Part shown: piece after piece, positions 20,501-44,709 of the stretch
How positions within the stretch are numbered: the stretch's first letter is position 1
Layout: each line of letters starts with the position of its first letter
Notes under the pieces: model-generated
The model's input: only the letters and a program-made list of their open reading frames with translations
Told to the model about the DNA's origin: nothing
Database searches by the model: none
From: Amoebophrya sp. A120
Lineage: Eukaryota; Protista; Dinoflagellata
Reading direction: 5' to 3'
DNA length: 64,000 nucleotides
NCBI GenBank assembly: GCA_905178155.1
Contig: CAJINV010000003.1
Coordinates: forward strand, 9,679,979-9,743,978
Made by a program: the position numbers and the translations under genes

Positions 20501-23500
20501 TGTTCTATGGTATTTGGGCGCGCTTTTTTGCCGTCCTACTTGGGGTTGGCTCACGTGAGCAAGTTTGCCGGCGCGTCGGCTCCAAGCAATATGGGCGAAG
20601 CAGCCTAAAACCCAGAGGAGTGGCGATGGCGGAAGCGCTATGGCAATCTCATTGGCGCTCTTGCCGTCGCGCTCGGCAGCTTGTTCGCCTGGTGGCGCTG
20701 GCATGCCTCGCGGTGGTGGGGAGTTTGGTCACATGGGCGCCCACCCGGAAAAAAAGGGCTTCTTCGTTTAATCAAGAAGCAATGCGGCCGACAAGGAGAG
20801 GCGGGCGCCTCGGTACCCAACGTCCGGTGGGGATTGCGGTTCCTGCTTCAAGCTACTGAAAAAGTCGGGGTGTCGCGGTGACTTCTTCACAGAGAGAGTG
20901 CACACGAGTACAGGTCGCGCGATTTTTAAATTTAATTGTTGAGCCCGTCATAGAAAACAAAGCGCATATATAATATCCAGAAGAGCACCCTTCTCCTCTT
21001 CTTTTTTGACTACTTGATCACGAAAACGAAAACCGACTCCCTGCATATGATATGGGAAGGCTCGGCTGTAACATTCCAGACTTTGGCTCTGACGCGATAC
21101 CGATGGCCTACTTAATGACGCGAATAATTGCCATGCAGCTTCTACACCTACAATGTGCAGATGCGCCCGCTCTCTTTCCATAAACGCTTGCATCAAAAAG
21201 AAAGCAACACAATGTCACAACCCAGAACGATTTTCATGGTGCGCTCGCAATATCCGTAAGTGGTCAGATGCTTAGTCACGGCCACGCTTTACAGGGGGCG
21301 CGTATCAGGCTAGGACGCAACAAGCGTATCCCTTGAAAGCAAAAAGCAAAAACAAGTGGAGCAAGCTTCTTCGTAACTATTATTAGTAGCCGAGGCGACA
21401 TCAAAGTCAAACAAAAAGCGAAATCAAACAAAAACGAAAAGGAAAAAAGCGCAAAAGCAAAGAGCAAGAACGCAGGGAATGCAAGTGCAACGGCTACAGG
21501 GCAAGTGGGAAGATTGACACTGGCATATGACGACTAACGCAAAGCGCTGGGACTGCAAAAGCGAAAAACAAAGCAAGCGGAGCGCGCCCTTAGTACCAAG
21601 TAGTTGTCAACTGAATGAAAAGGCTGCGCAAGAAAGGCAATGAGCGCGATGCCGCCCCGGGTCGCAACGCACCCCAGCACCACAAGATAAGACAACACGA
21701 ACGAAGCGGAAAAGGCAAGGCCTTGCCTGCTAATGCCTATGCTGGCAAGCGCTTTGCTTAGCACGTCGCACTTTGTGCGTGTTCCAACTCCTCCGCGTTG
21801 TTCCTATCGATCTCGATCTCAAGCACAGCAACGACGACACGCTCCTGCCTAGCTTAGTCGCATCGTTGTGGTTCCGAAACAGAGCGAGTCAATCCATCTT
21901 GAAACACGACCTCAAAACGTCCTGAGTCAAACGATGCAAACTCGACCGCTCTTCGTATGCTTATCAATGTGCTCAGAATCCTAACAGCCTACCCAAAAGC
22001 TAAAAAGGAAGTAGACATGACGGGGAACGTGCGTGCCCGTGGCGCGCATGCTTCTCATCGCGGCGTGAAGATGTTTCGTGGCCACCGCGTACAGGCATCC
22101 GCGATTGCATTTTTCCAAAAGTGCCAAAGCCAAAAAAAACCTAGAGCCGAACAGCTACAAACAAGAAGAGCCAAGGGCCCCGACCTAAAGAGCCGCCCTC
22201 GCGCTCGGTGCTTGGCGCTGTTCGCCGCGCTGCCGTCGGTCTGCCCAAGCTGCGGAAGGCCGTACCCTGTCAGGCCTGCCGATGCAAGTAGTCGGCTGGT
22301 CGGGCGGGCCCCCGAGGAAACTATCAGGAAAGCACCGGCCCGGCCGGCTGGGAGCGATCTAGAAAAACGCAGTAGAGAAAGCAAGCGCAGAAGCAAGCGC
22401 AAAAAGAAAAGCCCCTGCTCGCCACTCTGCGCCGCGCCGTCTTACGCTCAGAGGATCTTGCCGGGCCTGACCCAGCTGAAGGGTCCGACGGGTCCTACCT
22501 ACTGTTTACGCCCGACCCGGGCGGGCCGGCCCAGAGGGGCGGACCCCGGCAGGCCTGCTGCGCACACGAGAAGCGCTCGCAGGCCTGCAAACCGCCTCCC
22601 TAGCCTCGGCATGGAGGGCCCGGCGAACACGCGCCGGCTTGCTGAGATAGTACGAAAGTTAGTACTGGCGAGCCCCGGCATTGCCAGGCCTGGCCGGCCG
22701 AGTCGAAGAAAGGGCCTCAAAAAGGGCCGGCGAATGTGGAAGCGGCCAAGCCCCGTCTGTTCCGACGGATTGGGGCGGGCCAGGTGAGAAGGCCGGACAG
22801 GCGGGCCCCGGTTTGCCCGGAGCACTTTGCTGGCGGGCGCGCGAAAATCGCGCCGGGTGGGAGATCTAGCCGCCCCAAGCGGGTATCAGAAATCGGGCCC
22901 GGCTTAGTCGGGTATTCCCGTCTTTCTTCTTTTGCCGAGCCCCATTGTCCTTCTGTTCTTTTTTTTCTTTTCGCCTGTCGCTCCATGTATCTAGCACCTA
23001 TGTAATTGCCCTCCTCTTTACACACTACAGGCAAAGCGTACGTTGCTAGTTATGCTTTGGTAACTAGCAAACGCAGTGATTACGTTATACTGCATATCCA
23101 ACCTGTTGAATCAATTTGTGGTACGGTCTGACCCATCAAAGGCGACTTCGACACTCTCTTAGAGGTGCTGCGACTTCGACACTTCACGCATAGCTGCTTG
23201 AAGCCACCAAAGCGCATCGAGTTTTCGCTAGTCCCGAAATCTGCACGAGACACCTCCAAAGAATTCGTCTGAGTTCTGGCATGGTATGCTTTTTCACATG
23301 ATATTCGGCGTTCCGAGAGTTTTCGGCCGGAATCATGTCCACTTTTATCATGCCGGGTGCGTCCCAAAAAAAGATATGAAACCCCTCCAGAATTTTGGAA
23401 ACGCGTCCCTCCCAGAGCACACGGTTCCCAGCATACATCTCGTCAAATTTCCGGCGCGCTCGTAGCGGGTTACCTAGAGACTTGCGGTAGCCGCAGAACT

Positions 23501-24032: not shown

Positions 24033-24760
24033 GGCTACTTAGTGGCAGCACGTGAATCTTTGCAACCTAAAAGGCAGCTGCCAGCATGAGAAAGCTTCCT
24101 CCTTGTCTTCCCCGGCTTCAATGACTCTTTACACTTAATCCGGACCGTTCGTCCGGCAGTGGGTTCGAATAAACAAAGGGGGCCGAGACGTGCAACGCAG
24201 TGAAGTTAAGGCGCTACGCGTCTGAGACTAGTACGTAAAAAGACCACTGCAGAGCAGACCAACTGACTCAGCGGATATACTTGTTTGATGGCATGGCGTC
24301 CCCCGACGGCAGGGTGGTGCACGACCTTGCAAAGGAATATCGCCAAGGAGGTGGCGTGACATAGAAATTGTGGAAGCACTGCAACGCCGTCAACGAAAAG
24401 AAACGGGACACGCGCTCTCTCAGTATGCCCTGCACATGAAAAAACTTCGCGAGCACTTGCTCCGTGTTCATGCTCCCGCGTGCTGTGTGAGCATTAGGAC
24501 ATGAAGAACATCGAATGCCCTGCACGCAAAAGCCACAAACCAATGGGCTAGTACAAGAGGCGCAGTTGTATACGAATGAATAGGAAGAATAGACCGTGGC
24601 GGCAGGAAGTGCAAAACGGAGCCCGACCAGGATCATTCAAAATCACGACGAAGGCGCACCGTTTTCATCTAATAGGGGCGCCATGATAAATTGGAGGCGC
24701 GACGGTGCGGGCGCTTCATTCGTTGGCCGGGCCGAGCGCGAGTGCTACGATGAGGAGCTG

Positions 24761-24845
24761 CAAGACGCGGCGCCTGCAGCTAAGAGCATGGAGGCGCAGT
24801 CCGCCTGCATCTAAGAGCAAGACGCGGCGCCTGCATCTCAGAGCA
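24761..24845. repeat. Three-unit tandem repeat of ~27-30 bp (CAAGACGCGGCGCCTGCA.CTAAGAG)
   Basis: Seen directly in the sequence. Confidence 0.8.
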
Positions 24846-26833
24846 CACATGGGCGCACCCGGGGCAATTTTAGCAGTGGCCGGCCATCGCTCTGAGGCCA
24901 CTGTCGCCGCTCTCCTCGTAGAACTACGACCAAGAAACGGACGGGGTTGCCATCTCGCCCACGAAACCTGAGCGAGCCACCCAAGCGAACTGCCTAGCTT
25001 CCCCCAGGGGGCAGGACTCGTGAGCGCTAGGGCCGGCGGCGGTGCGCGAGGCAGTCGCGCAACGCATCACATACATATGAACTCCTCGCCCGACCGGGCG
25101 GTATGGTAATCAATCGCTGCGCTTTTCGTCTGCGATGTCAAACGCGCGCCGCCTGCACTTCCACGACCGCGCGCAAAACGGGGTCACGGCCCTGGCTTTT
25201 CGCGGTCCGCGACCGAAGGCGAATGCCTGAACGGGGGGGCGCACAGCCTTCGTCTTGGGCCGCGCCCCCAAGGTGCGGGTCGGGCTCCTGGCTATGCGGG
25301 GGCGGCCATGCGCAAAGCCAAACGCTTTGGCGCGCCATACCGTCGCGCCTACTTAATAAAATTTTGCCTCGCAGTGCAATAAAATTTTGCCCCGCAGTGC
25401 ACGGCGCACGCCTGCTTTTTGCCTGTTTTCGTTTGTGCTTTTTTCGTTCATTTCGTGCATTTCTTCGGCGGGTGCTTTCGCAGCTCAAAAACGGGGAGCA
25501 CCCGCTTCATCAGGCGGAGGCCCCCTGCCCAAAAATGGCAAAACGTTGCGCCTCTTTTCGGACGCAAAGGTCGGCCCTTTCCCACCTTTCCCGGGCGGGA
25601 TGCTGCGGCTTCGGCGCGTCGTTGCCCGGCCACTCGGCTGACCCCGGGCCCAGCTTCGCAAGCACTCCCCTCGGAGGAGCTGCCCCACCTTGGGGGGCGT
25701 CGCTTCGTTCCGTCTAGGTCTCCCGCAAAGTAATCCGCCTTCGCCCCGTTGCTTCGTAAATGGGAAGGGTATAGTTTTTTATATTCGAACGGGGTAACAA
25801 ATTCAAAGCGAGTAGTTGCAGGCCAACTTGTCATTGCAAATGCAAATTAAAATAAAAATCAATTTGCAATTTCAAAAAATAAAGAACTACTTTTTTTTCA
25901 GTCCACGAACCACGGGACCCCATGGGGGAATTCGCTTCTCGCAAAAAATAGAACTTCTTTTTTACACTCCCGCCCGCTTAAAAACTGCCGGGCGTTTTGC
26001 AGTCAAAAAAGCCGCCAGCAGATTGATTGGAAAGCTCGTAACCTCACTATATGCGATTGACTCAAAGCCGAAGCCGATTACACATCTTCACATTTCCTAA
26101 GAAGTCTAAGCCGAAGACAGAATCACTTTAGACCACGTGCTAGTGGTCCGCCATTTTTTGCGAAGGACAGGAGCAAAAAGCCGCCAGGTTGAAACGTTCG
26201 GGACTTCACACAACGCGCGATATTTTTCGGGGCATGTATTTATACGAGTAGGCCTCCCCCGAAGTGGTTAGCTTTACATGCGCGAACAGATTCTTCTTAC
26301 TCCAGTCTCAAGAACAAAGTGCCTCTGGCTGCTCTGTCAGCGTCGACATCAACAGCACCATATCGACGTGAATCGCAGCGACTTTGTACAAATATTGTAA
26401 CTTTGCCCACTGCTCATCTTCATGCGCTCGTCTACGCTTTTCGCATGTAGATGCGGCTAGGGCTATGGTCAGGTTTCGCTCTTGCACTGCTCGTTAGTCT
26501 TTATGACGCATCAGCTTTAGACTATTATATATAAGGGGGGCGTGATCGCGCGACGATTTAGTCAGCCATACACCTATTTCATTTGGGCCACGGAAGCAGT
26601 GGCGCTGGCAGCACAGCGAAGCCTCTTTAGACATCTTCAGCAGATTATGAACCTGCGAACACCAGCCCGGATGGTGAGCCGATGTTTTGCGACGCGACAC
26701 ATAGACGAGTTTTCCATGAGATTCAGCTGACGCGCCTGCAACTCTTGCAGTTCTAGTCTATGCAGCTACGAGGTAATGCTATGTTGAATGCATCCCTTTA
26801 TAATTTGCGTGAACAAAGAACCACCTCATCCGG

Positions 26834-28777: not shown

Positions 28778-29489
28778 GCGAACAAAGACAAACTCGTCCT
28801 CCTACCTACTTTCTTTAGTTCAGTTGTGTAAAAGTATGAGAATAGGCGAAGTACCACTGAGGGCAGTGATGCGCCATTTCAATATTCGCGCCGCGCCGAG
28901 AGGAGTAATCCATCTCCATCTCTGCCCGTGAAACACCATTTGCCGCCTTGGTAAACAAGCGCTCTCATCTCGACGCCTCTCCCGAAACCACACGGACCGA
29001 CGTCGCAAACGAAGCCGAGCACTGTCTTGAAACAGGTGCAACAAGATTGGAACAATAGAGAGGCAGCTCGCGTTCCATGCCATAAATATCGACAGACTCC
29101 ACGCCCAAAAAAACCGACCGCGCGATGCAAGTTTTTGTACATTTTTCCTACTCAGCATCAGCATTAAGCTCAAGGGCTGCAGTCACGTCACTGGGTGGGT
29201 GGCAGGTCGCTATCTTTCTATCACCCTAGCCGGGCGGTAACATGGCTAGAAGCGAGTAGATGATACCTAACCCGAGCCCCTAGGTAATAGTAGAGGTAGT
29301 GCCTGTCCGAACGGGAACACCCGTTCAGTACAAACCTAAGCTGCAGTACTTCCATTAATCTTCCTGAGTATGTAAGAACCAATCCACGCGGCGTGCGCCG
29401 CGTGGGAAAAAGTATATACATCATTCAGGTTCGACGCAGTTGATTTCAAATCAAAGCGCATGGCCCGCAGCCCTCTGATAGAATTAATA

Positions 29490-30000
29490 GCCGGAAAACT
29501 TCCCCGAAGACTTTCGAGGCGTGGCAGCGCGGGAATTTCGCAAACGCGCCGCGCGTGAACGCATGGGTCACAAGTGGCCTGCCTTCTGTCTGGAAAAGTT
29601 TTTGAGAAACAAGGGGCCTGCCTTCCGTCGAGAAACATACGGGGCGAAGAGTCCGCGACTTCTTACTTCGGGAAAGTTTTCGCTTTGTCTTCGAAAGTCG
29701 GACTCGGAGCCAAAAAGTGCGCGCTTTCTTGGAAACATGAGAAGTCACTGACCTTCAACTTCTGGAAAGTTTTCATTCTGGAAACCACTGACTTCTCATT
29801 TCTGCAAAGATTTCATTTTGGAAAAGTGAAACACTTCCGAAAAGTTTGTTTTCATTTTGGAAAAGTGAGGAGTCGCTGCCTTCTCACTTTTGAAAAATTC
29901 TCACTCTGGAATCGGAGTCGCGTTCACTCTTCCCAGAGTGAGAAATTTCGAAAAATGCGAAGTCAATGACTTCTCGCTCCGTTTCGCGAAGGTCTTCGAG
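29490..30000. repeat. Repeat-derived segment rich in GAAAAGT/ACTT motifs with an imperfect inverted repeat
   Basis: TTTCATTTTGGAAAAGTGA x2 (29811, 29850). CGAAGACTTTCGAG at about 29505 is inverted as CGCGAAGGTCTTCG at about 29985. Confidence 0.5.
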
Positions 30001-30227
30001 CTCCCGAAGCCCAGAATCGCGAGGGCAGTGCGCGAAGCATCTGAACGCGAGCGATACCCAGTCGGGCTCTTTTCACACGGCGAAAAGTAAGCGCCCGACT
30101 GGCACCGGTGCCTCTGCTAAAGAGGGCGCGCCTCCGCTTGGCGTCAGCCGGAACTTCATCACGAGCCGGGCGCAGTTTGAGTCAACGCTGGAGCCTTTTG
30201 CTTGTGTTTAAACAGCGCAAAGTTAAC

Positions 30228-30935
30228 AAAACCTTCAGAAGGCAGCTTCAGAAGGTTTTGAAAGCATAATCTTCAGAAGCTCTTCAGGAAGATTTTTTGA
30301 CCTTCAGAAGGTCAAAAAAAGCTGCGTCATTTTTTTCGCGTTTTTTGATAAAAAGTGGCAATTTTCGTTTTCCACCTTCAGAAGGTTTTGAAAAAACGAC
30401 CTTCAGAAGGCCAAAACCTTCAAGAAGGTCAAGAATTATTTTTGGCAAACCTTCAGAAGGTTTTTTGGGTCAAAAATCTTCTGAAGGTTACAACACACCT
30501 ACTGAAGGTATGAGTCTTCTGAAGGTTTTCAAAAAAGGCGAAATTTGTGCAATTCAGGACCTGACTCCGTTTCAGTTTTGCGCATCAAAAAAAGTGTTGA
30601 CTTTTGGATCTTCTGAAGGTTTTCTGATTCTTCTGAAGATTCTTCAGAAGGTTTTTCTTCTGAAGGATGTTATGACTTTTTTCCTTATAGTCCTTCAATT
30701 AGTACCAGTCCACATGGGGCAGATACCGTCGAAACCGAAAGCCCTTAGAATATAAGTAATTCCTTCACGCGACTCTAGACAAGCCAAAAGGCCGTACGAA
30801 TATCACCACCATTGACTTCTGGCGAACAGGCAACACGCGGCAGAAGCCAAGCTGGTAGCTCTATATTGTTTTTTGAACCGTCAGAAGGTCTTTCGATTCT
30901 TCCGTGGATTCTCCTGAAGTTTTACGTTCTGAAGA
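30228..30935. mobile_element. CTTCAGAAG-motif element, copy 1 (subterminal-repeat/foldback type)
   Basis: Many CTTC(A/T)GAAG motifs, mostly the A form before about 30470 and the T form after it. Shares CTTCAGAAGAATCAG and CTTCAGAACGT (inverted) with 43150-43590. Confidence 0.7.
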
Positions 30936-30980: not shown

Positions 30981-32555
30981 TTATGGGGCCCTGTCCCCCT
31001 CGGACGGACAGAGCGACATGTTTGTCGTTTGCGATCGTTCTGTCATAAGGCCTTGCACGAAATAGCACTGAGGTATCTTTTGCAAACTCTTGCTCCATAC
31101 TTGCACGCTGGTAGAACCCAAATCGAAGTACAATCGCACATTTTTTGACTCTAAGGCTTTATCTGCAAAGACGAGGAACCCATCGCAGGCGGAGACAGTC
31201 CGAGCAGCACCGCGCAGAGGTTTCTGCTTTTTCCTCGCTGACCTATATCTGCCGCTATTCTTTACATCGGCACCTATCATGCACTTCGTTCGCAAACTTT
31301 CGCCTTCGTCCGCAGCTTCTGCTTTCGTCATTTCATTCTCGTGCCGTATATTCCTCTGGTACAAAAAGAAGGGGCACGCCACTGCTGGTGGGAGCTGTCT
31401 CTCGAAGAAGTTCTGCACTTGGCTCATACTCGCTCTGTGGACCGACCTGACCAGCACTGAGACGGTTTTTGACTTCTGTTTCTGTAGCGCGTCAAGAAGA
31501 ACCACCTCGCTCACACAACGGCAGGCGTGGTGCGTGGTGAGCGTCATGACAAAGGTTTCTCCGTCATTCACCGACCAAAGCAGAGAGTGCACCAATTGCA
31601 CATCCCTGGCGATTTTGTTTGCATGGATGTAAAAATCCCAAGGGGAAGTTCGCCTTCTTTCTCTTTGCTCTCCTGCGTTTTCTTCGGCTTCGCCATCACC
31701 TTCGCATCTTTCTGCCTGAACGCGTCCCGAGCTACCCCCCGCCTTACGAAGCCCGGATTCCGTGGGCGCATGAGCCAGTGACGTTACCGCGAGGGACGTA
31801 CTTCGCGTCTTGCTCGTGCTCTCGCTGTAATTACCATCACTATGGGGGACTGAACTCAGATCGCACCCAGACCGTGCTGGCGTACACGAGCCAAGGACAT
31901 TGCGCGACTTGATCGCTGTAATCCAATTTGACGCTACAGCGGATCCGAGGAGCCTAGAGACCTCACCAGATCGTACATCCGTCGACCGAGGTTCAGGGTG
32001 TTCGTATGTGCTGTCTGGAAACGAGCATGCCGATGCGAAACCAGGCCCGTCTGTGACGCAAATTCTTGTGTCTTCTGTCGCTGCTGCCCCAGCTTGGGCC
32101 TGCGCAGCGCACGCGAAATAATTCATCCGCACGTTGGCTTTGCAATGCCGGATCACATTCTCGCATAGGAACCGATAAACGGGTTGCGGGAGCTTGACCA
32201 TGTCCTTTTTCTGTCGCTTCGCTGCTGGGGCTGCAACCCCTACCTCGTGCGACTTCTCATGCGAGCAGACACTTTCCTCGTCGTCTTGCAAGTCCTCGAC
32301 GCCGGATCGCGAAACCGGCAACGTGCCTTCCAACGTGTTTACTCGTCCGGGGCCGTGTGCTAGTTCCACCGCTGATCTTTTTAGCGAATGCTTCAGCGTC
32401 TGCTTTCTCGGCAATGCCTGCGCGATGTCAATACTGGTTGCACAGGGCGGCATAATGCCAATAATAGCCACCGGGGTGGGGTCAGTAAGGTGGTCGGGAG
32501 CGTTTTCTTGCCTTGACCCGGCAGCACTCGGTCCGCGCCCACAGCACGCTGACAA
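30981..32555 (-). CDS. Hypothetical protein (524 aa)
   Basis: Long ORF on the gene-bearing strand with normal coding-like composition. No family recognised. Confidence 0.65.
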   Translation of the reverse strand: MSACCGRGPSAAGSRQENAPDHLTDPTPVAIIGIMPPCATSIDIAQALPRKQTLKHSLKRSAVELAHGPGRVNTLEGTLPVSRSGVEDLQDDEESVCSHEKSHEVGVAAPAAKRQKKDMVKLPQPVYRFLCENVIRHCKANVRMNYFACAAQAQAGAAATEDTRICVTDGPGFASACSFPDSTYEHPEPRSTDVRSGEVSRLLGSAVASNWITAIKSRNVLGSCTPARSGCDLSSVPHSDGNYSESTSKTRSTSLAVTSLAHAPTESGLRKAGGSSGRVQAERCEGDGEAEENAGEQRERRRTSPWDFYIHANKIARDVQLVHSLLWSVNDGETFVMTLTTHHACRCVSEVVLLDALQKQKSKTVSVLVRSVHRASMSQVQNFFERQLPPAVACPFFLYQRNIRHENEMTKAEAADEGESLRTKCMIGADVKNSGRYRSARKKQKPLRGAARTVSACDGFLVFADKALESKNVRLYFDLGSTSVQVWSKSLQKIPQCYFVQGLMTERSQTTNMSLCPSEGDRAP

Positions 32556-33631
32556 GCGGCCGCATTTTCAAATGCAGCCCGGTCCTCATGAAGATACAGG
32601 TAGCCCACAAACCGGGAAGTCGGAAACACGGGGCGGGCTCGAAACGGCTCCCCTGTTTAACATCCTACCAGGGCACCCTGTACTCACCTGTTTACCTTTT
32701 TTTATGCCCGCGGCACGCCCCGCGGGGAAGTGGCCGAATTATAGTATGCCGGGCATTAGCTAGACAAATACTCAAGCAGTTCGGCAACTTTACTCGCAAA
32801 GCCACCCTCCTGCCCCCGCACCTCTTGCCACCGCGCCTGTTGGGAGTGGCAACATGGCAGCGCTCTACCACAATAGCAATAGGCGGGGGCACCAGGGTCC
32901 TGCCCGATGCAACAAGAGCCACTCGATCGAATAAGGTCAGAAGAACAAGCGCGACCGCAGACACTTACACTTCTTCCCCCTCGAACGGAGGGCCTCCGGT
33001 TCCCGAGCTCTGCAAGAACGAACTCGGACCCCCCGACTCCGGAGCGCAGCGCCCACGTTTCGGGAAACCCGAAGTCCCTCCGTGCGCTCAGCGACGCCCT
33101 ATCACGCGGAGCGGTACCTTCAAAGGGATTGCCATTGCCTGGGCTTTGACGCTTTTCCTCCTTAGATAGATACTCCATACCGCAGCGCGCCTTTTCCTTT
33201 TGCCATTTTTTCATAAATAAATTTATACGCAGCTGCGCTCCGGTCGAAACTGCACCAGCTTTGCCGACCGGGGAACTATTCAAAAAACATCTGCCAGATT
33301 TCATGTGTTGGCGTCTTCCCTTTTTGCCTACATTTGGCTGGGCCGAACGGTCACAATCCAAGGCAGCAGACCTTTGGTGAAGACGCCACTACATTTCACA
33401 AGTTTCCTGCGTCGCTGTCGCAATCTTCGGTAGAATGTTTAAGCACCGCCACAGCACGTTTAAGCACAGCCACAGCACTGCGCGGGCTTTTGTGTAACAG
33501 ATCCGATGCCACCGATCTTGAAGCTGGCCACTTCGCGTCTTTTCATTTGGAAAGAACATCCGCGACGGCTGAATTCCACTACTCAAGTCGGCGGCCGGTC
33601 TCAAGCACAAAAAAACTCGTAAATTACGACC

Positions 33632-34228
33632 TTACTGACCTCGCTGCATACCAGAGCCATGGGCTGCAGAGCAAGAAGAACGCGACTGCTGGTCCTCCCG
33701 GTGTAGTAGCGCCGCTGCTTCTCTTGCAGACTGCTGTCGCTGCTTTTCAAGGTCGTAAAAAGGACTGTCGACACTGCCGTGATGGCCCGGGTTTTTTACG
33801 TCCGCTTCTGTGCACATACGAAACTGGATCTTCTTCTGTCCGTACAATCCTAGCACCGGAGCCTCTGTCGTGCGCCACACGGCCTCTGGATCGGCAACGA
33901 GAGTGGAGGAAGAACTTCGCCCGGCGGTGAGGCAGTACTCGAACTGGTCGTGCGTGCTTGGTAGCACTTTCTCGACCGCTTTTCTCAATTGTCCGGGGTT
34001 GTTGTACACGATGTTTAGCGACGAATCGTCTAGCCATTCAAATCTCTTCACTCGGGCTTTGCCGAAGGCACTCTTGCGCAGGTCTTGGGTCACGCAGGAC
34101 TCCACCCCAAAGAGGTGCAGCACAGATGGGCGTACCGGTGCATGACTCACGAACGGTCGGCGATCCATAATGAAGCGCTGTCTACGGCTCCGATAGGGAC
34201 CCACACCGGTAGCAGGCTTTGAACGCAC
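33632..34228 (-). CDS. NCBP3: Nuclear cap-binding subunit 3 (DUF2414)-like RRM protein, partial
   Basis: RPSVLHLFGV..TQDL..FEWLDDSSLNIVY and RMCTEADVK match the NCBP3 pattern 'RPxxxHxxGVD..EWIDDxSxNxV..RxATxxDxK'. Terminal exons unresolved. Confidence 0.7.
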   Translation of the reverse strand: MRSKPATGVGPYRSRRQRFIMDRRPFVSHAPVRPSVLHLFGVESCVTQDLRKSAFGKARVKRFEWLDDSSLNIVYNNPGQLRKAVEKVLPSTHDQFEYCLTAGRSSSSTLVADPEAVWRTTEAPVLGLYGQKKIQFRMCTEADVKNPGHHGSVDSPFYDLEKQRQQSAREAAALLHREDQQSRSSCSAAHGSGMQRGQ

Positions 34229-34857
34229 AACTTCTGCCGATGCTCAAGGCAAAGGGCACAACATCACGAGAAGTGCCTGGGCCATTATCTCCATCGCCAT
34301 TTAGGGATCAACACTAACATCTTCGAAATCTTCCAAGCAACTAGAAGACATATTTATACTTTAAGATTATAAACTTCTTCGACCGCGTGCCTGCTTTGCC
34401 ATCGAGAGAGTAATCTCTTTTCATGAAGATACTGGCATCAGATTTCAAAACTCGTCGCGACAAGAGAAATACAACAAAATAAAGTATCCTAAAACCATTA
34501 TAGAAAAAACGTACTTAAAACTAAAACTAATAGAGCGCACCTAATTCGCTGATTATTTCATTTAGATTTTTCAGAGAGCGGAAAGGAAGGAGCATGGTAA
34601 ACCAGAAAGAAAGCGAGGAAAGAGCAGGCGGGGACTCGCTTGTATGCATTCTGGTGGTTAGCTGGATTTTATCTTTGTGAACGTCAATCGATCATGATCT
34701 GCGGCCATGTCCATTCGGGCTTGTTCGTTATTGTGCGCATGCGCAATGATTTTTACTGGGGAGCCTTGAAGTTCCAACGACATGGAAGGAGATCAGCTTC
34801 TTACCATTTACATCTCTTTCATTTTGTGGAACAAAATAGATTCAGTTTTTCAGTCCG

Positions 34858-35097
34858 CCGAGACGGGACCCCGAAAGGCGAGTTTACCTATACCTAGCGT
34901 GGGACAGAGAGGTTCCCGGGTACCCCAAAAACATGCATAAAAAAACTAGAACTTGATGCGCGTTTCAAATTCTTTAAATCCCCCGAGGCGGGACCCTTGC
35001 GGGCAAATTCGCATACCCAGCGAGGGAGGATGCGGCTCCCGGGTACCCCAGAAAAAGGGCACCTTCTGTCTGCCGAAACGGGACCCTTACGGGCAAA
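34858..35097. repeat. 2.3 copies of a ~74-bp direct repeat (CCGA..CGGGACCC...TCCCGGGTACCCCA); related fragment at ~25895-25921
   Basis: Units start at about 34858, 34983 and 35073. TTTTTCAGTCC..ACGGGACCCC is shared with about 25895. Confidence 0.75.
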
Positions 35098-35269
35098 CGC
35101 AATCGATCCAGTGTGATTTTTTCTGGTATTTCATTCTGGAACTAGGTAGACGGCTCGCACTTCAATAAATCAGCCTAGCAGTTCTTCTCCGTCCCACAGT
35201 TGTAGGAGGATGCAATGAAGATCTTGATCTGAATACCAATGCATTTCGTGCTGATGCTCTGAGCGACTT

Positions 35270-35366
35270 TCGTCTGGTCCGCGGGCCGAGTCCCAGGTTC
35301 GCAGATTCTCTGGTCCGTAGGGTCCCTGGTCTGACCAGGATCCGCTCTCTGGTTTACCCAGATACC
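35270..35366. mobile_element. Right end of a MULE-like MITE (same terminus as at 53328 and 43145)
   Basis: CTGGTC(C) subrepeats ending GGTTTACCCAGATACC, compared with GGTCTACCCGGATACC at 53313-53328. Left end not clearly found. Confidence 0.5.
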
Positions 35367-35376
35367 GACTTCCTAC

Positions 35377-38300
35377 CTATCTGTCGCAACAAGGTGCAAC
35401 CGCGCCATCGGAAAACACTTTGAAGTCTCGCGATCTACCTTCATCGCCGTACCAAAAGTGCGGGCTGGGACTGCTGACATTTTCTGTCGAATCGCTTTGG
35501 CGCAGATGCGACTGTGGAGCGACGCGCAACAAAGGTCCAGGCTGACCCGGACGCGAGCTTCTTGCCTTTCTTGCGAGTTCGTTACGATAGAAGCCGAGCA
35601 GAGAACGCAGATCCGAGACGCTCGGGTGGATCACTTTTCGTGGCGAACCTGCTCCAGGATCATCTCGACCTGAACTGACCACAGTAGCGCGCGTGTTCTG
35701 CGTATCCTGCTGCCAGTCTTTCCTCTGCTTCTGCATCGAGAGTTGACGCACCTCTGCCGCCGAGCTGCAGCAGCCGGCGGTAATAAACGGTGCCCTGCTT
35801 GCCTCCCCCACCCTGGTGTCAGCGCTACGGTCTGCGTTTTTGTTTCTTGCTGGACAGTGCGCGAAGAAACACTTCCGCCACACGGGCGATCGCAGATGCC
35901 GCAAAACCGGCGACAAACTGCAGCTGCGCTTGTCAGGGCTTGTTCCTTTCTCTTCGACAATATCGCACGGCCGATCTATTTCTACTGGAAAAAAGTCAAG
36001 GCCGTGGGGCGGCAACATAGACAGCCCCGCCGAAGTATCGGCCACTGCCCTCGAAGGACTAAGCGGGATCGGCGATGAAAAACGTGGGTCGGGGTAGAAC
36101 TGCAGAAGCGTCGTCGTGCTCCCTAGTACCGTGTTGGGATAGGGGGCGTCGTGCCCCTGCGGTGCGGCCCGGTCTTCCGCATCTTGTGCTATCTCCTCGC
36201 TTGCGCTGCTCGTAACGGAATTTCTGTGTTTTGCTGACAACACCGAACGGGCAGCAAATATATTATTCTCCTCCTTGCGCGGCCGATAGTCCGGCTCCAT
36301 AAGCGGGTTTCTCCATGTTGCAGACGTCTCTGCCGCATGCTTCTGACAGTCTGGTGAAGTGGCTGAATTTGCAGTCGGGCTAAGAACCTGCATAGATGCA
36401 CTGAGCTCGGGAACACCGGGGGATGCGGAGAAGATTGTCCCGGCGCCGTGCCTCCTGAGCCGAGGAGTCGCCGCATCGGTTGAACTTGACCCTCCTACCG
36501 GACTGTCTTTAACGGCCAGGGGTGGCGCCTGCGTGGGCACGTCATCTCCACTAGTGGCAGTTCTCGCGGGGAAAGCTCCATCGTCCGGAATGGATATCCG
36601 ACTTGTAGCTGCATGCCACCCCGGTGCGTCATCCGAAAAAATTGCGTACAAGCGCTTTTTCGCACCTGCTCCTGTAACGTTTGTCATTGGCTGTGCCTCT
36701 ACGAGGAGCCGACCGCTTTCAAGGCCTGGCGACGCGAGCGCTGTGCCTAGGCGAGGAGGATATGCAGATCCTGGAGAGCGCGACCGGGTCGCGCTGCTTC
36801 CAGAGGAACGAGACCCTGTGACACGAAGGTGTGCGACTTGATCGCGGGCACCGGCGAGTACTCTTTGCTGCCTGGACTGCAATTCGCTCGTCTGTTGCTG
36901 CTTCTGCCACCACTTTCGCAAGTCCGCAACTTCAGGAAACGGCGACACAACTGCGTCCGACCGCTTCCGAAAACGGTCCTCCAGAGCGCGGACTGCAACC
37001 GACGGACGTGCAACGTCATCGGTGCTGCCCGTGTCAACTCCTGCCGCTGCTACCGGTTTGTTCCTGAGCGAGCTCATATTAGACCGGAAATCCGAAAGAA
37101 GTGCGCGCTTTCTGGTTCTTGAATAAGCGGGGCACGGTACGTATGTGGCCCACCGACCGGGACCTGGCGGCAGCCCCCCCCCCGCCCTCACTCTCGAAAT
37201 CCAGCACCGGCAAACGAAGGGGCGCGACACTGCACAGAGCCGCTGCCTGAGGATTGATGGCCGAGGCCAAAGCGTTGGAGCACGGCGATGCACAAGAGCG
37301 TCCGAGGCTCTCCGCCGCCGGCCGGCCTTAAAATGGGTCGGACGTGCGCGGGCCGATTTCCGGGCAAGAAAATTGGGGGGACCCCCGAATTGGCGCCTGG
37401 CCCGAAGCCACCGGAGTGCCGGCGTTTGATTAAGACCTTGAAAGCCGGTTCGGCTCCGCACCCTCGCAGCGGAGCGGCACGCAGTGGGGCAAAGCGGTAA
37501 GCAAGCCCCCTCGTTTTACCCCCTAGCTTCGGCGTTGCCCGCCGGCACGGGGGGGGCGACACTTGGGAGCGTTTTGTGCGTTTTTACTCCCCGGCGAAAA
37601 GGCTCAGAACTCGGCCACGCTTGCAAAGTTTAGGGCTCCAAGATCCGCCGAGGGCAAGAAGCCCCGGGCAAGCTTCGCCCCTTGTCCGGCGCGCCGTACT
37701 TGTTGCCCTCGCTGCTGCGTCCGAAGCCCACTCGAGGACCAGAAGGCGCGCACTTCGTCCGGATTCCTGGTCTAATGATGCGATCGATCGCTTGTCGCAA
37801 ACTCTCCGAGATAGACTCCAGTGCCCGGTGGTACATCAGGCGCGAGTCTTCGGAAGTGGACCGCATCTTTTCAAGCTCAACACACTGCTTGCCTGCGAGA
37901 AGCTCCGCCCTGCAGCGCTCCTTCACTAGTTGAGCCGCGTGCTTACGCGCCATATGCCGGAAAAACCCGAGCTGGATTTTGCGCAATGCCAAGTCCCGCT
38001 CCTGCACGATCACGGACCGGGGGCGTTCTTCGCCCGCACACAGGGGCCGGTGCGTCTCCGACCGGGTACCGGTTTCGAGGTCGGCAAAAAAACATTGCTC
38101 CTGGCGAGACTCCTCCGACTTCACCTTCGGTGGCGCCGCGACAAGTCGAGGCTTATCAGGTGCCACGAAAGGCGTGCTGCGCTCTGCCAACGGGTAGGGA
38201 TGTAATGTGCTGTTGCGTATTGACTTTTTTTGCGACGCCACTGTCCGGACCACGTGGCCGGTATTCAGGGCGGCGCGGAACGACATGAACTTCGACACCG

Positions 38301-38925
38301 CTCCTGCAACCCCACGAGTGCCTCGGCTGATATCTTCACTCTTGGTCTCCTGCGCCCGCGCGATAGACCGTGCTGTGACAGCACGGAGCGTTGTGCCGCT
38401 GAGTCGGGGCGTCGCTTTCTTCTCTCCGTGGTAGGAGTCCCGGTTGCGCTGGTTCTCGAACCTCCGGGGCCCGCCTTCCCGGTTTGCAGCGTCGGTGAGG
38501 ATGGAGGAGGATTCTGATGCGGAGCTTCTGCGAATTGACGAGCGATCTTTCACCCTATTGTTCGCAGGTGCGTCTAGCACTGCACGTGCAAGCGTTGCGT
38601 TCGAGTCGACCATTTGGCTGCTACTTCCCAGTTCTACTGTTGAAACGAGGCTCCCTAGCACGATATTGGCTGGACCACCGAGCCAGTCGGTAGGTTGGGG
38701 CTGTGAGGTTGTGAATGAAGTAGAGGTGGAACCACCACGCACTATTGCCGCGCCAATATTCTTTTCCACCTCCGGTGTGCCTTGTCCCGCCTCGCTCTGC
38801 TTACTGTCTGGGAAGGACGACAGCGTCTGCAATGTGGAAAATTGAAGAGGTTTCGTTCCAAACTTCCGGAAACCGACTGCTGATTCATTGTAACTCGTGA
38901 ATACTTGGTGGGTCCTAAAATTCAA
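35377..38925 (-). CDS. Large S/P/A-rich hypothetical protein; exons ~38925-37777 and 37077-35377 joined across a TIR-bounded insertion
   Basis: Two long same-frame ORFs fuse (..AIDRI|MSSLRNK..) when 37078-37776 is removed. 5' end uncertain. Confidence 0.65.
37078..37776. mobile_element. 699-bp introner-like element with ~51-bp TIRs interrupting a coding sequence
   Basis: ATTAGACCGGAAATCCGAAAGAAGTGCGCGCTTTCTGGTTCTTGAATAAGC is inverted as GCCCACTCGAGGACCAGAAGGCGCGCACTTCGTCCGGATTCCTGGTCTAAT (10 differences). It contains an in-frame stop, and its length is a multiple of 3. Confidence 0.85.
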
Positions 38926-40111
38926 AACAGCAAAGCCGCAGACAATGTGGCATGTCCTCTATTCTGCTTGTCAACTGGATCGGCTCGTCTGTAGCGAAAG
39001 AGCTATATGGAATTCGCACTACTAATTGACGCACAGAAGGATAGAAACAAGAGATTTATGTACAATGCCACTCGCACCAATTTTCGCCATCTTGTTCGCT
39101 TCGCCCTGCTCAGTCCTCTCGCGGCTCATCTGCATTTCTGTCGCGAAGACACTTCTCTTGTGACCATACCGGATAGATACTGCGGAGAGGCGAGCTTTCT
39201 CCTGAGGCACTCGCGGCTTATCGCCCGGAGACAGCGCTGCCATGGTCTTGAATTGCTTGACCACCTGCTTTCGCTTTCCGGTGTTGAAATACACAGCAGG
39301 TTCACAATGAACCTAGCCGGCCCTTCTGGGATTCCTGCTAGTTGGACCGCAACGCAAGTGAAAAATATGCGCGGATCGTCATATCTTGGGAAAGCCACCG
39401 CTCTCTTCAGAGCGATATCGGTTACGATACACGAACAGCTGTTCCGCCTGCACTTGCAAATCCTACTTACACCACCCACCATCTCACCCAAAACAAAGAA
39501 AAGCCGCTTCGCATCTCTACTCACGCGTAGTTCGACCCCTGACGAGGAGTAGTCTTCTTTTGATGCCCAATCGTGTCTCCCGAATTGTGTCCGATTCCCT
39601 CTCAGTCTCACTCAGGCACGTCCGTTAACCACATCGGCGAATCCCCTTCCCCGTGAGCGATGTCTTTGAATGCTGGTGCGGAAGTGCCAGACAAAAGCAG
39701 AACCACGTACGTGCCGCCTTTGCCTCTGCATGACGCTACAGATTGATACATGTGCACGACTGTACCTCTAGACGACCACACTCACAACCTGACAAGAACA
39801 CCGCTAACAGGCGAAATGCTGGCACAGTTTTGCGCTTGTGAATCCGCAGTAATTGAGATTGACGCTCAGGCTCAGTGTTGCAAGTCAAAATAGATACGCG
39901 TCTTGCTGCAACTACGTATGCACACTATTAGCAATATGAAAATACCAAGGTGCATAGTTAGTTCGGATCATCGTTTCGTCGCTCGAGTACTAGCTTCAGC
40001 TCTGCGCTAATTACACAGCGTCATGTAACTGCTCCAACGCGCGCTCCCGGGGTCGGATAGATGTTGTTGAGAGGACTTGTATATACTTCGTTCTGCCAGA
40101 GCATTTTGCTT

Positions 40112-43100
40112 TCAGTCATGCCGCTTGCGAACCAAACAGATACCGTTCTTGCAGCTTCTGAGCGTTTCCCACCGCCCTAGCCGAGGTTCCTTACCAACCG
40201 CACAGATGAAGAAACTTTCGCTTTCGACGATTTGATTCACCACGCCCGCTACGGGAATCGCTTCTTGTGGAACGAGCGTCTGCTTGGTCTGCACGCTCTT
40301 ATTCCTTCGACCATTGCACGCAGTCGCCGCACCAGAATCCAGCTTCTGCTGCTTTATTACGTCGTCACCTGTTACGCCGGCACTCTTTTCTCGGATTTTC
40401 CAGGACCTGAGGTAGCCATCGCTGCTGCCAGATAGAAGGTAGTTGCTGTGGCGCACGCATCCGAGACTGCTAATCCACATGCCGCCGTGCGCGTTTTCGA
40501 ATGACGCCTTGGGCTTGCTACTTTCTGCGGACCAGAGATGCAGGTGGCCGTCCATTCCGCCACTAGCGTAGGCACTACTCTGCAGCGCACAGACTGCATC
40601 TACAGAACTCGTGTGCTTTGCGAAGAGCAAGTGCGAATCTTGTGTAGTCTGCGAAATCGTACAGTTTTTGTTTTTGCCACAAAAAATTATATAGTTACGT
40701 AGCAAGAATGGTCCAAGCGTATAGTAGAGTCTGAGTGCGTGCGATCTGGCGCATTGCTATTTCATGTCTTTTCTAATGCGGTCAAAGAAGTAAACAAGTA
40801 CCTTCCAAAGTCTCGCAGACTTGTCGGCGCTTCCTGTGATCGGCCTGCTGGTCTGATTCAAGTCGATGCACGTGACAGCTTCGGTGTGCCCCAAGTACGT
40901 GTCAAGGCACGCAAAATGCTGCAGATCCCAGAGCTTGACGAGCTTGTCGGTGCCGGTGGTGAATACGTTCGTGCCATCGACCACCACGCCAGTAATGCGG
41001 GCGCCGCGCTGGTGCCCCGCGAGTTCCCGAATGCAACGATTCGTGAAAACGCGAGGGTCCCAGACTCGAACCAAGCTATCCCCCCCGACACTGACCAAGA
41101 GCTGCAGGGCCTCGCAAAACGCTACATCAAGCACCTCAGCATGATGTCCACCGCACGCAAAACTGTTGTGTTCGTTTATTCATTCTGTAAGTACCGTTGG
41201 TTACCACGACGCATTTTTGAAAAGTGAAAGTTGAAATATTGTACTTAAAATTTCGGGCAACAAGTTGACGTCCGACGTTGGTGTTCTCCCGCCAACATCA
41301 CTTTCAGGTCTATATATACACACAATTGTAAGCAGATTAGGATTACTCGCGGGGGCTGCCCGAGAAACGAACTTTCTTTCGTGATTCGACATCCCACTCG
41401 TAGACGACGCAATCCTTGCCGCCGGAATACACTCTGGTCTGGTCTCTTCTTACGCACGCGCTCGTACCTGTAGGTGTATGGACGCAACCCGTAAACTGTT
41501 TCGCTGCGGCTGCTAATCCAATAAATATAGGGACAAGAAAGCTGCAAAGGATTGCTGCTCCTTCTTGAGAAGGTTTTTTTTCTTTATGGCCCTCCTTCTT
41601 GAGAAGGACCCCCTTTCCGATACCGAAAAGGGGGGGGTAGGTGCAGTCGGTCGTCTGGCGGGCCGTATCCAGACATGGCCGGGTCCCTCCGGACCCGACC
41701 AGTTTTTCTTTTCGGACTTCAAAAATGTAAATCCGCAATTTCCCCGCCCCGGCAAAAAAGCGCTTCGTTTTGTTTGCTGCGGCTTCTCAGCGCGTCTCCC
41801 TTCTGCTGCGGTTTCTGTGGTGTGGCTGGAACAGAATGAAACACAACAACAGAAATAAATTTCTTGGGCGCGCGCGGACCGGCATACGGATGCAACAACA
41901 GAAAAGGCTTCAAGCGCGCGATGCGCGCGCGCAAACTGAGAAAAAGCTCGCGGCGCGCGCTGGTGCGCGCGCGCAGCGGAGAACATGCAGCGGAGAACGT
42001 GCCGCCCCAGTGGTCAAAGTGGCCGCCTCAGCTTTTCCAAATGCAGGAAGTGCTGAGATGGTCGCTTCAACATCCCGAGGGTGGTTGTCGTGCAATGCTG
42101 GGCTGCACGTAGCTGCCCCCTGGTGGTCTATTGCGTGGCAGCCCTGTTTTTGTGCAATAGAGCTACTTCACAGGAGAAGAAGCGTCGCCATGATGCATTG
42201 CGAACCACCTCCGTTTTTGAGCGGTAGAGCTGCTCCACAGTGGGTCTACGTCTACAAACTGCGCCCAAGCTACTGCGAAGCAGCTTTTTTTTTTGCGCAG
42301 TAGGTCCACGGCCTACGTCTCCAACCAAGTGGGGTGGCTATCAAGTTGGAGATGATTTACACCGGGGCAGCTGTGCTGCTGCTGGGCTCTGTGAAAGAAA
42401 GCCGCCCCCTTTGTTTTCGGAGATCGGGAGCCGGCTTTATTTTGAGAAGCAGAAAGCGCGTCGGTTCCGCTTTGCTTCCCTTGCGCTTCTTTTTTTATGA
42501 AAAGAATAAGAACAAACGAGAACTCGCTCGATAGCGTCGGCGCTGTGTACTTTGCGCACGGTAGTGCGCCTCGCAATCCATCGAAGCTGGCCGCCGCATG
42601 TGGCTGCCGTTGCGCTTTTTAAAAAACCAAGCGGCGAAAGGCGTTAGGCGCGCCGTGCCGTTGGGATTGAAATTCGCGATAGGTTTCGCGATAAACAGCC
42701 CCTTGATTTCGAAAAGGGGGGCGTGGGGGGGGTAAGCTCGGTCAGAGTCCCGCTTCTACCCCCCTTTTCGGTATCGAAAAGGGGGTCGATTAATCGTACA
42801 GCCTTTAAGCCCTTCTGAAGGCATGCAAAGGCGCGAACCAGGCGCCGCGCCCTGGGATCAGGTACCCTGGACCGGACCAGGTACCCTGGACCAGGTAACC
42901 CGGAGAATCAGGTGCCCAGTGAGCCGGGTGATCCGGAGTGTGGCGTCAGACGGCCACGCCGGGCGTCGGAAGGGCAGACCAGGCGGCGGACGACCAGGCC
43001 GGGCGGCAGACGGCCGGAGTGCGCGGCCGACGTGGTTGCTGGCAACCCAGTTCCCCGGGTACCCGGTCCACAGGGTACCTGGTCCAGAATAGTACCTGGC

Positions 43101-44709
43101 CCCAGGTGCCTGGTCTGGCCAGGGTACCTGGTTCATGCAGATACCTCTGAAGGTCGAAGGTCAAGACTTGGACCTTCAGAAGAATCAGCAAGAGACGCAT
43201 TTTTTTTGCTTGAAAATAGGATCGGGATAATCGTGAATATTTTAACCTTCTGGCGGTCGTGCTTTCTGCAGGTTTTTTTGAACTTCACAGTAAAAACGTG
43301 AAAAAGATGCAAAAAAACCTTCGGAAGGCCAAATCTTCAGAACGTTGAAAACCTTCAGACGGTCGAACTTTCTTGACCTTCAGAAGAGTTTGCAACTTTT
43401 TAGACAAAAAGCAAGCTTTCAGAAGGCCACTTTGATAAACCTTCGGAAGGTTCAAAACCTTCAGAAGGTTTTTCGCTTTTTATCAAAGTGCAGCAATTTC
43501 ATTCTGCCTCTTTCAAATATTCTTCAGAAGTTTTGCCACCTTCTGAACCCGACCTTCTGTAGATTCCTCTGAAGGCGCAAACCTTCTGAAGCATATCCAC
43601 GAGAGCGCAAATTCTTGAAAAATTCAACAACAATGCTGACAGCGACAGGCACTCACACGCATTACTTTCTTGCGCGATTGAAAAGCTCTGCCACCCGTGT
43701 CGGGCATTATCATATATAAAAAAGGCGGCTCCTGCGTTTACACTTGCAAAAGCTCGCGCTGCTTTTTGCCTCTGAGAGGCCGCCTTTTCGGCTGTTTTGA
43801 ATATCCTGACCTGATATTGGTTTTTCCTCTCTTTTCCGTGTTCGAGTTTAATTGTACGTCTTAAGTGCTGTCAGCTTGGTGAGAGAGCCCTGCCGTGGAC
43901 GGCGTCGCTAGTCTTCCAGCATCGAGAACCAGTCGACTTCTCGCTATCTGTTATCTGTTCTCACTAACCAAGTACAGAACATACAATGACTCCAAATGTG
44001 GCCCGGCAACAATCTGAGTAAGCCTTGCCTGCGATCGCGTTCACAGAACAAAAAAAGAGGACTCCACCATGAAAAATTAGTACATGTGCCCTGATGTCCG
44101 CGAGGAAAAAATATCGGCGTGTCGAGTTGAAAGGTTGCATCGGCGACTTGCGGTTTGTCAAAATCCTCTGCTACTCGTTTGCGTTTGCCAATGCTGTTGC
44201 TGTCCGTTCCCGCGATGGTTCGCAAATACTCTTTCGCGATTCGCAATCGCGTCTCATCGACACCCTCCTGCTCCGCAGGATCTTCGAAGAATTCTGTAGG
44301 ATTGGAAAAGATCGACCATATGATAGATTCGTAAGTGAGTGATTTTTTTGTATCATATGAATACAGTGCGTGCTCCCTGCTAGGCGAAAAAGATACTCCC
44401 AGGGTGCTTTCACGTTTCAGCGAGCAGATTTCTCCCGGAGGGCCTGGGCTCGAGGGCATCTCGTGTGGCCCAGCAGCCACCCGCTTTGAACCCGCGTGCC
44501 TTCAAAATTGCAGTCAGCCCAAACAGTCTCGAGCATCATAGTGAAGCCGACATACGTAGTGAGGTGTGTAGCTACGTGTAAATCAATATTGGAAGCTGTA
44601 GTACGTGTAAATCAATATTGGAAGGCAAGAACAAATTGTTACCGTCTTCGCTGTGAGGCGATTGTCGCTCGTGGTCGGCGTGGACTCCGTTGTGTTTGTG
44701 AACGACCAT
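40112..44709 (-). CDS. RRP9: U3 snoRNP WD40 protein Rrp9/U3-55K; exons 44709-44643, 44293-44084, 41467-41347, 41162-40802, 40648-40112
   Basis: Motifs ETRLRIAKEYL, RGHQGT|CTSA..VYSGGKDC, CGGH..VL, DKSARLWK, SGSSDG.LR.W and AVGKEPRLGRW. Four GT-AG introns restore one frame. The first exon is less certain. Confidence 0.9.
41607..42787. mobile_element. 1.18-kb element with ~32-bp TIRs that are themselves hairpins; no TSD
   Basis: GACCCCCTTTCCGATACCGAAAAGGGGGGGGTAG (41607-41640) is inverted as CTACCCCCCTTTTCGGTATCGAAAAGGGGGTC (42756-42787). Located in RRP9 intron 2. Confidence 0.8.
42811..43591. mobile_element. CTTCAGAAG-motif element, copy 2, interrupted by a MITE; may extend left to ~41550
   Basis: Numerous CCTTC(A/T/G)GAAG motifs, plus CTCCTTCTTGAGAAGG x2 at 41558 and 41592. 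Confidence 0.7.
42823..43145. mobile_element. 323-bp MULE-like MITE with GGTACC/CCAGG subrepeats and a 9-bp TSD
   Basis: TSD TCTGAAGGC (42814-42822) versus TCTGAAGGT (43146-43154). GAACCAGG..CCTGGTTC inverted ends and the terminus ..GATACC, as in 52717-53328. Confidence 0.7.
44573..44624. repeat. Tandem duplication TACGTGTAAATCAATATTGGAAG x2 in RRP9 intron 1
   Basis: Seen directly in the sequence, period 29. Confidence 0.85.

Follow-up and report, generated by a model that had tools for sequence, protein, structure and literature searches.

Amoebophrya is a marine parasite of algae, and the window analysed here is a single stretch of 64 kb (64,000 nucleotides) of DNA from strain A120. On its minus strand lies a gene of three exons, the first two of which are separated by a canonical intron and the last two by an intron that has no GT-AG ends. 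In the order of transcription, and with all positions given in the coordinates of the window, its parts are as follows.

39064..39396, minus strand: host exon 1, to the limit of the contig, with the first ATG at 39243-39241 (X1 contig)
38827..39063, minus strand: canonical GT-AG intron, 237 nt, 43% G+C (X1 contig)
37776..38826, minus strand: host exon 2 (X1 contig); matches residues 376-564 of a protein of strain A25, E 1.1e-10
37074..37775, minus strand: excised non-canonical intron, 702 nt, 64% G+C, ends TT..GA; or, equally, 37075-37776 with ends AT..TG (joint in X1-X4)
34901..37073, minus strand: host exon 3, to the limit of the contig, with the stop TAG at 35379-35377 (RNA contigs)

Read from the ATG at 39243, the three exons give 975 codons in a stop-free frame, and retention of the second intron would stop this frame at codon 459. 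A sequence-only reading of the locus had proposed that the removal of an element between two open reading frames restores an open frame that exceeds 900 aa. A frame of 975 aa is indeed restored, and it needs the GT-AG intron at 38827-39063 to be removed as well. The two ORFs do share one frame, as that reading pointed out, but this is uninformative since it follows from a length divisible by three. The element was also said to sit exactly at their junction, whereas the ORFs, taken from stop to stop, run 48 and 146 codons into it. Moreover, the sequence does not force the removal in the way that had been supposed: 699 nearby GT/GC/GA..AG pairs also open a frame of more than 600 codons, a number whose agreement with the 699-bp length of the element is coincidental.

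The sole relative of the host protein, in a search of 1.84 billion representatives, is the Amoebophrya A25 protein GSA25T00008158001. Its matches to the three exons are collinear, with 23-30% identity in the three best segments; the N-termini of the two proteins align, and residues 425-514 of the spliced product, in exon 3, correspond to its residues 711-801. Since the matches follow the three exons in order, the two ORFs are parts of one gene, and the alternative that they are separate genes is contradicted. As to the length removed, the alignment is non-discriminating, with 59.7 bits for 702 nt versus 58.5 bits for 699 nt. Pfam holds no family for exon 2, exon 3 or GSA25T00008158001, and the top match in the Atlas (0.87) is an IQ-motif cluster, which is a lead only. 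None of 7989 candidates from a 90% collection was a longer relative of exon 2, which is weak evidence. For a second gene of the window, the best named match is an A120 protein at 43%. These two matches place the host in the genus Amoebophrya, and the low identity to the A25 protein speaks against strain A25.

The genes of the window are written in the standard code: three of them, counted spliced or unspliced, have no internal stop in 2303 codons, and their 103 Gln codons are all CAA or CAG. Stop-codon reassignment was rejected on these two counts. No full match to a spliced-leader remnant was found in the window. A short repeat in the 3' untranslated region of the host gene (34846-35058) is shared with numerous further contigs, of both DNA and RNA.

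Excision of the intron and its boundaries

Evidence on the RNA comes from four RNA-type runs (X1-X4), all of one sample (S1), in the form of assembled contigs whose RNA status was guessed by software; the genomic DNA is represented by two runs (X6 and X7) of one sample (S3), different from the RNA sample. In all four RNA-type runs covering the gene, position 37073 is joined to position 37776, with 702 nt skipped and a slide of one base, and the shorter side of the joint carries 225-255 letters. The X1 contig, 3557 nt long, has no letter that differs from the window, and because it skips three GT-AG introns, one of them in the same transcript as the 702-nt intron, it behaves as RNA. Contig depth matches the exon-only expectation in all nine bins, from which it follows that no RNA contig lies inside the intron, although contigs drop rare variants and minor isoforms could be missed. 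In both DNA runs an unbroken contig runs through the element and the joint is absent. A raw-read run (X8) placed 0 reads on the window, and a wild metatranscriptome (X5) covers only a neighbouring WD40 gene, the host gene being without coverage there. We are confident that the 702 nt are a real RNA intron without GT-AG ends. The sequence-only reading, which had suggested the mapping of RNA as a check, was right that the element is skipped and that its boundaries have no GT-AG; neither retention nor a cryptic GT-AG joint is seen in contigs X1-X4.

The precise form of the intron turned out differently from what had been proposed. A 699-nt AT..AT intron is absent from all four runs, which show 702 nt with AT..TG or TT..GA ends instead, and the proposed junction CGC ATC|ATG AGC, reading R-I-M-S, is in no run. 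An intron of that length, splicing at a cryptic GT-AG pair, or translational read-through of the stops is the least probable of all the alternatives weighed here. In their favour, AT-AT ends make up 2% of A120 introns (PMC7789003), many donor-acceptor pairs would open the frame, and a review (PMC11453091) reports reassigned stop codons in Amoebophrya sp. ex Karlodinium. However, such joints are absent in 4/4 runs, which contradicts them as the main form and would leave at most a minor isoform, and read-through is opposed by the standard code of the window.

The 702-nt intron consists of the 699-bp element and a 3-nt tail, ATG, and its ends are marked by two short features.

37777..37779, minus strand: ATC, an Ile codon of the exon; direct-repeat copy that is retained (kept in the X1 contig)
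37075..37077, minus strand: tail ATG, outside the inverted repeat, removed with the element

The tail probably represents the 3' copy left by a target-site duplication. The two copies of the direct repeat differ at one base, ATC/ATG (2/3) or ATCA/ATGA (3/4), and the exact slide is 1 nt, in place of the 2-nt AT repeat and its slide that had been read from the sequence. Since the C is present in the message, each cut must fall after the mismatch of the repeat, and it is this mismatch that limits the junction to two registers. The spliced protein reads R-I-S-S at the junction. An AG one base from the 3' cut is unused; the TA..AG form would give R-I-I-S, which is unseen. Relative to the stem, the 5' cut falls at its base or one base inside (offset 0-1 nt) and the 3' cut 3-4 nt outside it, in keeping with the distance of 1-6 nt from the splice sites that is described for such introns. 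The GT/GC..AG ends of U2-type introns are found in three neighbouring introns and not in this one. U12-type introns have AT-AC or GT-AG ends and the U12 5' consensus, and such ends are not found here either, the intron being AT..TG with the 5' end ATTAGACC.

Two further alternatives would do without splicing. The first is that the joint is a template switch of the reverse transcriptase across the base of the hairpin, which we regard as very improbable. Non-canonical sites, a strong stem and an end repeat are together a described signature of this artefact (PMC10275267), the RNA evidence is all cDNA from one sample, and a word search of the main text of PMC7789003 met with no RT-PCR, direct-RNA or template-switch control. 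The exact homology at the joint is, however, only 1 nt, a single joint is found in 4/4 runs with no contig inside the element, and a retained element would end a conserved frame at codon 459, exon 3 being homologous to the A25 protein. The second, which is more improbable still, is that the organism sampled for RNA has an empty allele at this site in its DNA; RNA (S1) and DNA (S3) do come from different samples. The arms of the element have drifted 16-20% apart, and a pre-insertion allele should therefore differ from the window elsewhere too, but the X1 contig departs from it at no letter in 3557 nt. A cut-and-paste footprint, for its part, would be expected to keep both repeats, that is, to give the 699-nt form, which is unseen.

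The inverted-repeat element and other repeats of the window

On the coding (minus) strand, the 699-bp element spans from ATTAGACC to GGTCTAAT, between the exon end CGC ATC and the ATG tail. Its features are listed below in transcript sense.

37726..37776, minus strand: 5' arm of the terminal inverted repeat, with a 45-nt core at 37732-37776 (arm comparison)
37630..37632, minus strand: first in-frame TAA in the intron, codon 459 if the intron is retained
37516..37518, minus strand: second in-frame TAA in the intron (frame reading)
37078..37128, minus strand: 3' arm of the terminal inverted repeat, with a 45-nt core at 37078-37122 (arm comparison)

The features that the sequence-only reading had described in the element itself hold up well. 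It had reported terminal inverted repeats of about 51 bp, and the arms are 84% complementary over the 45-nt cores and extend to 51 nt with 10 differences; nine of these are transitions, eight of which have G/C in the right arm, again as reported. Where it had noted an in-frame stop there are two, both TAA. The inverted repeat is beyond chance by blastn (E 4e-8 against the 64-kb window) and by its ungapped arm score of 24, as compared with a maximum of 18 in 200 shuffles. The fold of the element has a z of -3.7 (20 shuffles), and the four stem pairs tested have predicted pair probabilities of 0.67-1.0. The two strands give similar folds (z -3.71 and -4.03). Among the 10 arm differences, G-U pairs number 5 for the sense strand against 4 for its complement, and the predicted duplex is -79.6 kcal/mol for the sense strand versus -83.0 for the other. 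Among these 10 differences there is no wobble-pair bias towards the sense strand, the bias looked for as a sign of selection on the RNA strand, and since both strands fold and the G-U counts are 5 vs 4, the arms bear no mark of such selection. The asymmetry of G/C in 8/9 transitions has p = 0.039 for a comparison chosen post hoc, with a direction of change that cannot be polarised, and CpG decay accounts for one of the eight same-arm transitions. The element is without coding capacity, as 0/8 internal frames match Pfam at E 0.1, and Rfam gave 0 matches at E 0.1 for positions 34500-39500.

The sequence-only reading had also advised a count of genomic copies. DNA depth is flat across the element, at 24.4 and 42.2 in the two DNA runs, where other elements reach 311 and 792, and in both runs a single 6651-nt contig spans it unbroken, at 82-90% likeness. 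Blastn found no other copy within the 64-kb window. The element is thus a singleton at 82-90% likeness, with diverged copies possible, and in these DNA runs and the window it shows none of the close copies that an introner element in the strict sense, a member of a repeated family, would have. A metagenome scan with a 16-letter arm pattern gave 119 loci, in which the longest blastn match to the element was 21 nt, hardly longer than the pattern, and was taken as chance. Exact 8-nt arms starting with TTA-R-R form two pairs in all, fewer than in shuffles, and this seed misses the present element, which has a mismatch at position 8-9.

A 594-bp inverted-repeat element with internally repeated arms lies at 52726-53319, between the coding frames of a coiled-coil gene that is presumably CFAP58. 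At its ends, nine terminal bases of one arm of the 699-bp element recur three times. Including the 699-bp element there are four matches to this 9-base terminus against 0.2 expected, for a pattern picked post hoc, and as a likeness of sequence it may be a lead to a shared transposon superfamily. Short repeats related to the 594-bp element are found at 35293-35339 and at about 42860-43125.

The window contains a second non-canonical intron.

32458-33650, minus strand: non-canonical intron, 1193 nt, in a gene with an NCBP3 domain; spliced in 3/3 runs

It has a 3-nt repeat and a 3-nt slide, one register of which gives GT..TG; its arms are degenerate, and its removal restores the frame.

Several other observations were made along the window. 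In a LITAF-like zinc-ribbon gene (18188-23304, minus strand), X2-X4 join 18187 to 23305 with a CG that comes from neither side; the joint restores the frame, and the 5' end of the intron fits TAT-N7-AAA. The CG would reflect an A-to-G change next to the junction, or else a micro-exon, for which the one candidate, a 7-letter match near 18310-18316, may be chance. Nested in this intron is a 2580-bp inverted-repeat element (18373-20952) with TAT..ATA ends and a perfect 5-bp direct repeat, over part of which the DNA depth is raised. A piece of an X3 contig begins at 20953, a single base beyond this element's arm, with 25 unplaced letters, and the element may be spliced on its own. A multi-copy inverted-repeat element with 29-nt arms (41607-42787; DNA depth up to 311 vs 24) sits in a GT-AG intron of about 2.6 kb (44083-41468) of the WD40 gene, which resembles RRP9. 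At that gene's 3' end, X5 skips 130 nt (40087-40216) with a 4-nt repeat, while X1 keeps them, so that the skip would be either a strain indel or an optional intron. High-copy repeats rich in CTTCAGAAG-type palindromes are located at 29230-30650 and 43130-43600, with a DNA depth of up to 792 vs 42. Further stretches bounded by inverted repeats, known here from sequence alone, are 6252-8231, 24695-25350 and 55364-56687.

Likeness to known introns and possible routes of excision

Introns of this sort were described by Farhat et al. 2021 (PMC7789003), who report more than 60% of the introns of A25 and A120 as non-canonical and leave the mechanism of their removal open. Their inverted repeats are 8-20 nt long and lie 1-6 nt from the splice sites, their direct repeats are 3-5 nt long, and tens of thousands of singleton introner elements were found; in A120, a 4-nt repeat immediately precedes the 5' arm and recurs no more than 2 nt after the 3' arm (PMC7789003). 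The same source describes a nearly complete U2-type spliceosome with U1 snRNA undetected, and reports the snRNAs of the minor spliceosome as absent. Diverse TIR-derived introners in A120 are reported in PMC12130899 as well. No later test of the excision mechanism in Amoebophrya was found in the literature searched, which had most subscription journals outside its scope.

The present intron belongs to this inverted/direct-repeat non-canonical kind, as the sequence-only reading had recognised: RNA contigs skip it, and the relative of its host protein is from A25. Like the described introns (PMC7789003), it is without GT-AG, has paired ends and an imperfect border repeat placed as in A120, is raised in G+C, lies in a poorly conserved gene that has a canonical intron too, and, at 702 nt, falls in the range of 40-1000 nt that was analysed. 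The start of its arm, TTAGA..G, is like the A25 motif, and one arm has TAT-N8-AAA, which is near the A120 motif TAT-N7-AAA (PMC7789003). It differs in its arms of 45-51 nt as compared with 8-20 nt, in the imperfection of its direct repeat and in having no close copy, and neither TT-GA nor AT-TG is among the rows of Table S4 of that paper.

Similar introns in other lineages are treated in PMC11282704, which covers the MITE-derived introners of Micromonas and Aureococcus. These share with the present intron the TIRs, a 3-nt target duplication (here putative) and the exact restoration of the frame, and in Micromonas the intron is likewise the element plus one copy of the repeat; they use GT/GC and AG from the element or the duplication, however, whereas both ends are non-canonical here. 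The MITE-derived introns of Fritillaria borealis have both the transposon hallmarks and non-canonical ends, and their removal is credited to an adapted spliceosome; AG-AC and AG-AT prevail among them, neither of which is seen here (PMC11282704). Nonconventional introns of euglenids, from an unrelated lineage, also have paired ends, variable dinucleotides, a 3' spacer longer than the 5' spacer and a purine at the start of the next exon, but the present intron is without their fixed-spacing CDG/CHG motif in both registers (PMC12501133).

The best explanation, in which we have middling confidence, is that an old non-autonomous TIR transposon serves as an intron and that its paired ends present the cuts to a relaxed spliceosome. 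The transposon origin of the element, taken by itself, is quite probable. The insertion would have duplicated a 3-nt target (4 nt with the shared A), of which one copy later changed, to leave ATC vs ATG; splicing would take out the element with the 3' copy of the repeat and so return the exact pre-insertion frame. The stem would bring the 5' cut, at its base or one base in, beside the 3' cut 3-4 nt beyond, and the catalyst would be a U2-type spliceosome that tolerates odd ends. The explanation is supported by the same joint in 4/4 runs, the element kept in 2/2 DNA runs, a restored frame that is collinear with the A25 protein, and the similarly built non-canonical joint of a neighbouring gene (32458-33650). 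Counting against it, the second non-canonical intron has far weaker arms, so that long pairing is not a general need, and against mobility, no close copy of the element is seen in the DNA runs or the window. The proposal of the sequence-only reading, that base-pairing of the ends defines the splice junction, may on this explanation hold for the present intron.

A less probable explanation, though one that carries some weight, accepts the same intron and takes the hairpin for a fossil of the transposon, the relaxed spliceosome using short cues (TG|purine and CTAAT) together with exon definition. It would account for wobble pairs without strand bias, for a 3' cut outside the stem, and for TG before a purine in both introns with a clean joint (AT..TG|A here and GT..TG|G at 32459-33651), although this last rule rests on n=2, and the 5' cut is within one nucleotide of the stem base. 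The CTAAT that makes up the final five bases of the 3' arm resembles the branch-point consensus, but branch points usually lie farther from the 3' cut than the 5-9 nt measured for this word. GT-TG ends make up 1.3% of A120 introns, and inverted repeats were scored in only 11% and 30% of Amoebophrya non-canonical introns (PMC7789003), which would also suit a spliceosome that has no need of the hairpin.

It is unlikely that the intron is removed by a structure-measuring, non-spliceosomal nuclease with a ligase, as supposed for euglenids or for splicing of the tRNA type. For the tRNA type, pairing of exon CAU with the AUG of the tail is predicted behind a bulge of 1 nt, at a probability of about 0.4 and with the polarity of a bulge-helix-bulge. 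That motif has a 3-nt bulge, a 4-bp helix and a 3-nt bulge, however, and the predicted bulge of 1 nt and helix of 3 bp fall short of it; the same transcript, moreover, carries a GT-AG intron. For the euglenid type, the 3' spacer is 3 nt longer than the 5' spacer, as in Euglena (3 vs 5-6 nt), but neither register carries the Euglena signature N3-CDG..CHG-N5-6|R (PMC12501133). U1 snRNA, as noted, is undetected in Amoebophrya, which would favour such a cutter, while nearly all spliceosome proteins are present (PMC7789003), which would not.

In its general form, the idea that Amoebophrya hairpin introns are cut by a spliceosome-independent, stem-measuring cutter, with cuts staggered at 0-1 and 3-4 nt in convergence with Euglena, seems to us unlikely to a similar, perhaps slightly greater, degree. 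If it were true, non-sliding introns, in which the direct repeat is mismatched, would reveal the stem-measuring rule. On its own, the present intron is a single case of a kind that numbers tens of thousands. Direct repeats usually blur the position of the cut, but here a mismatch fixes it to two registers, and with long arms that offer a clean target for unpairing and rescue, the locus is a good test case.
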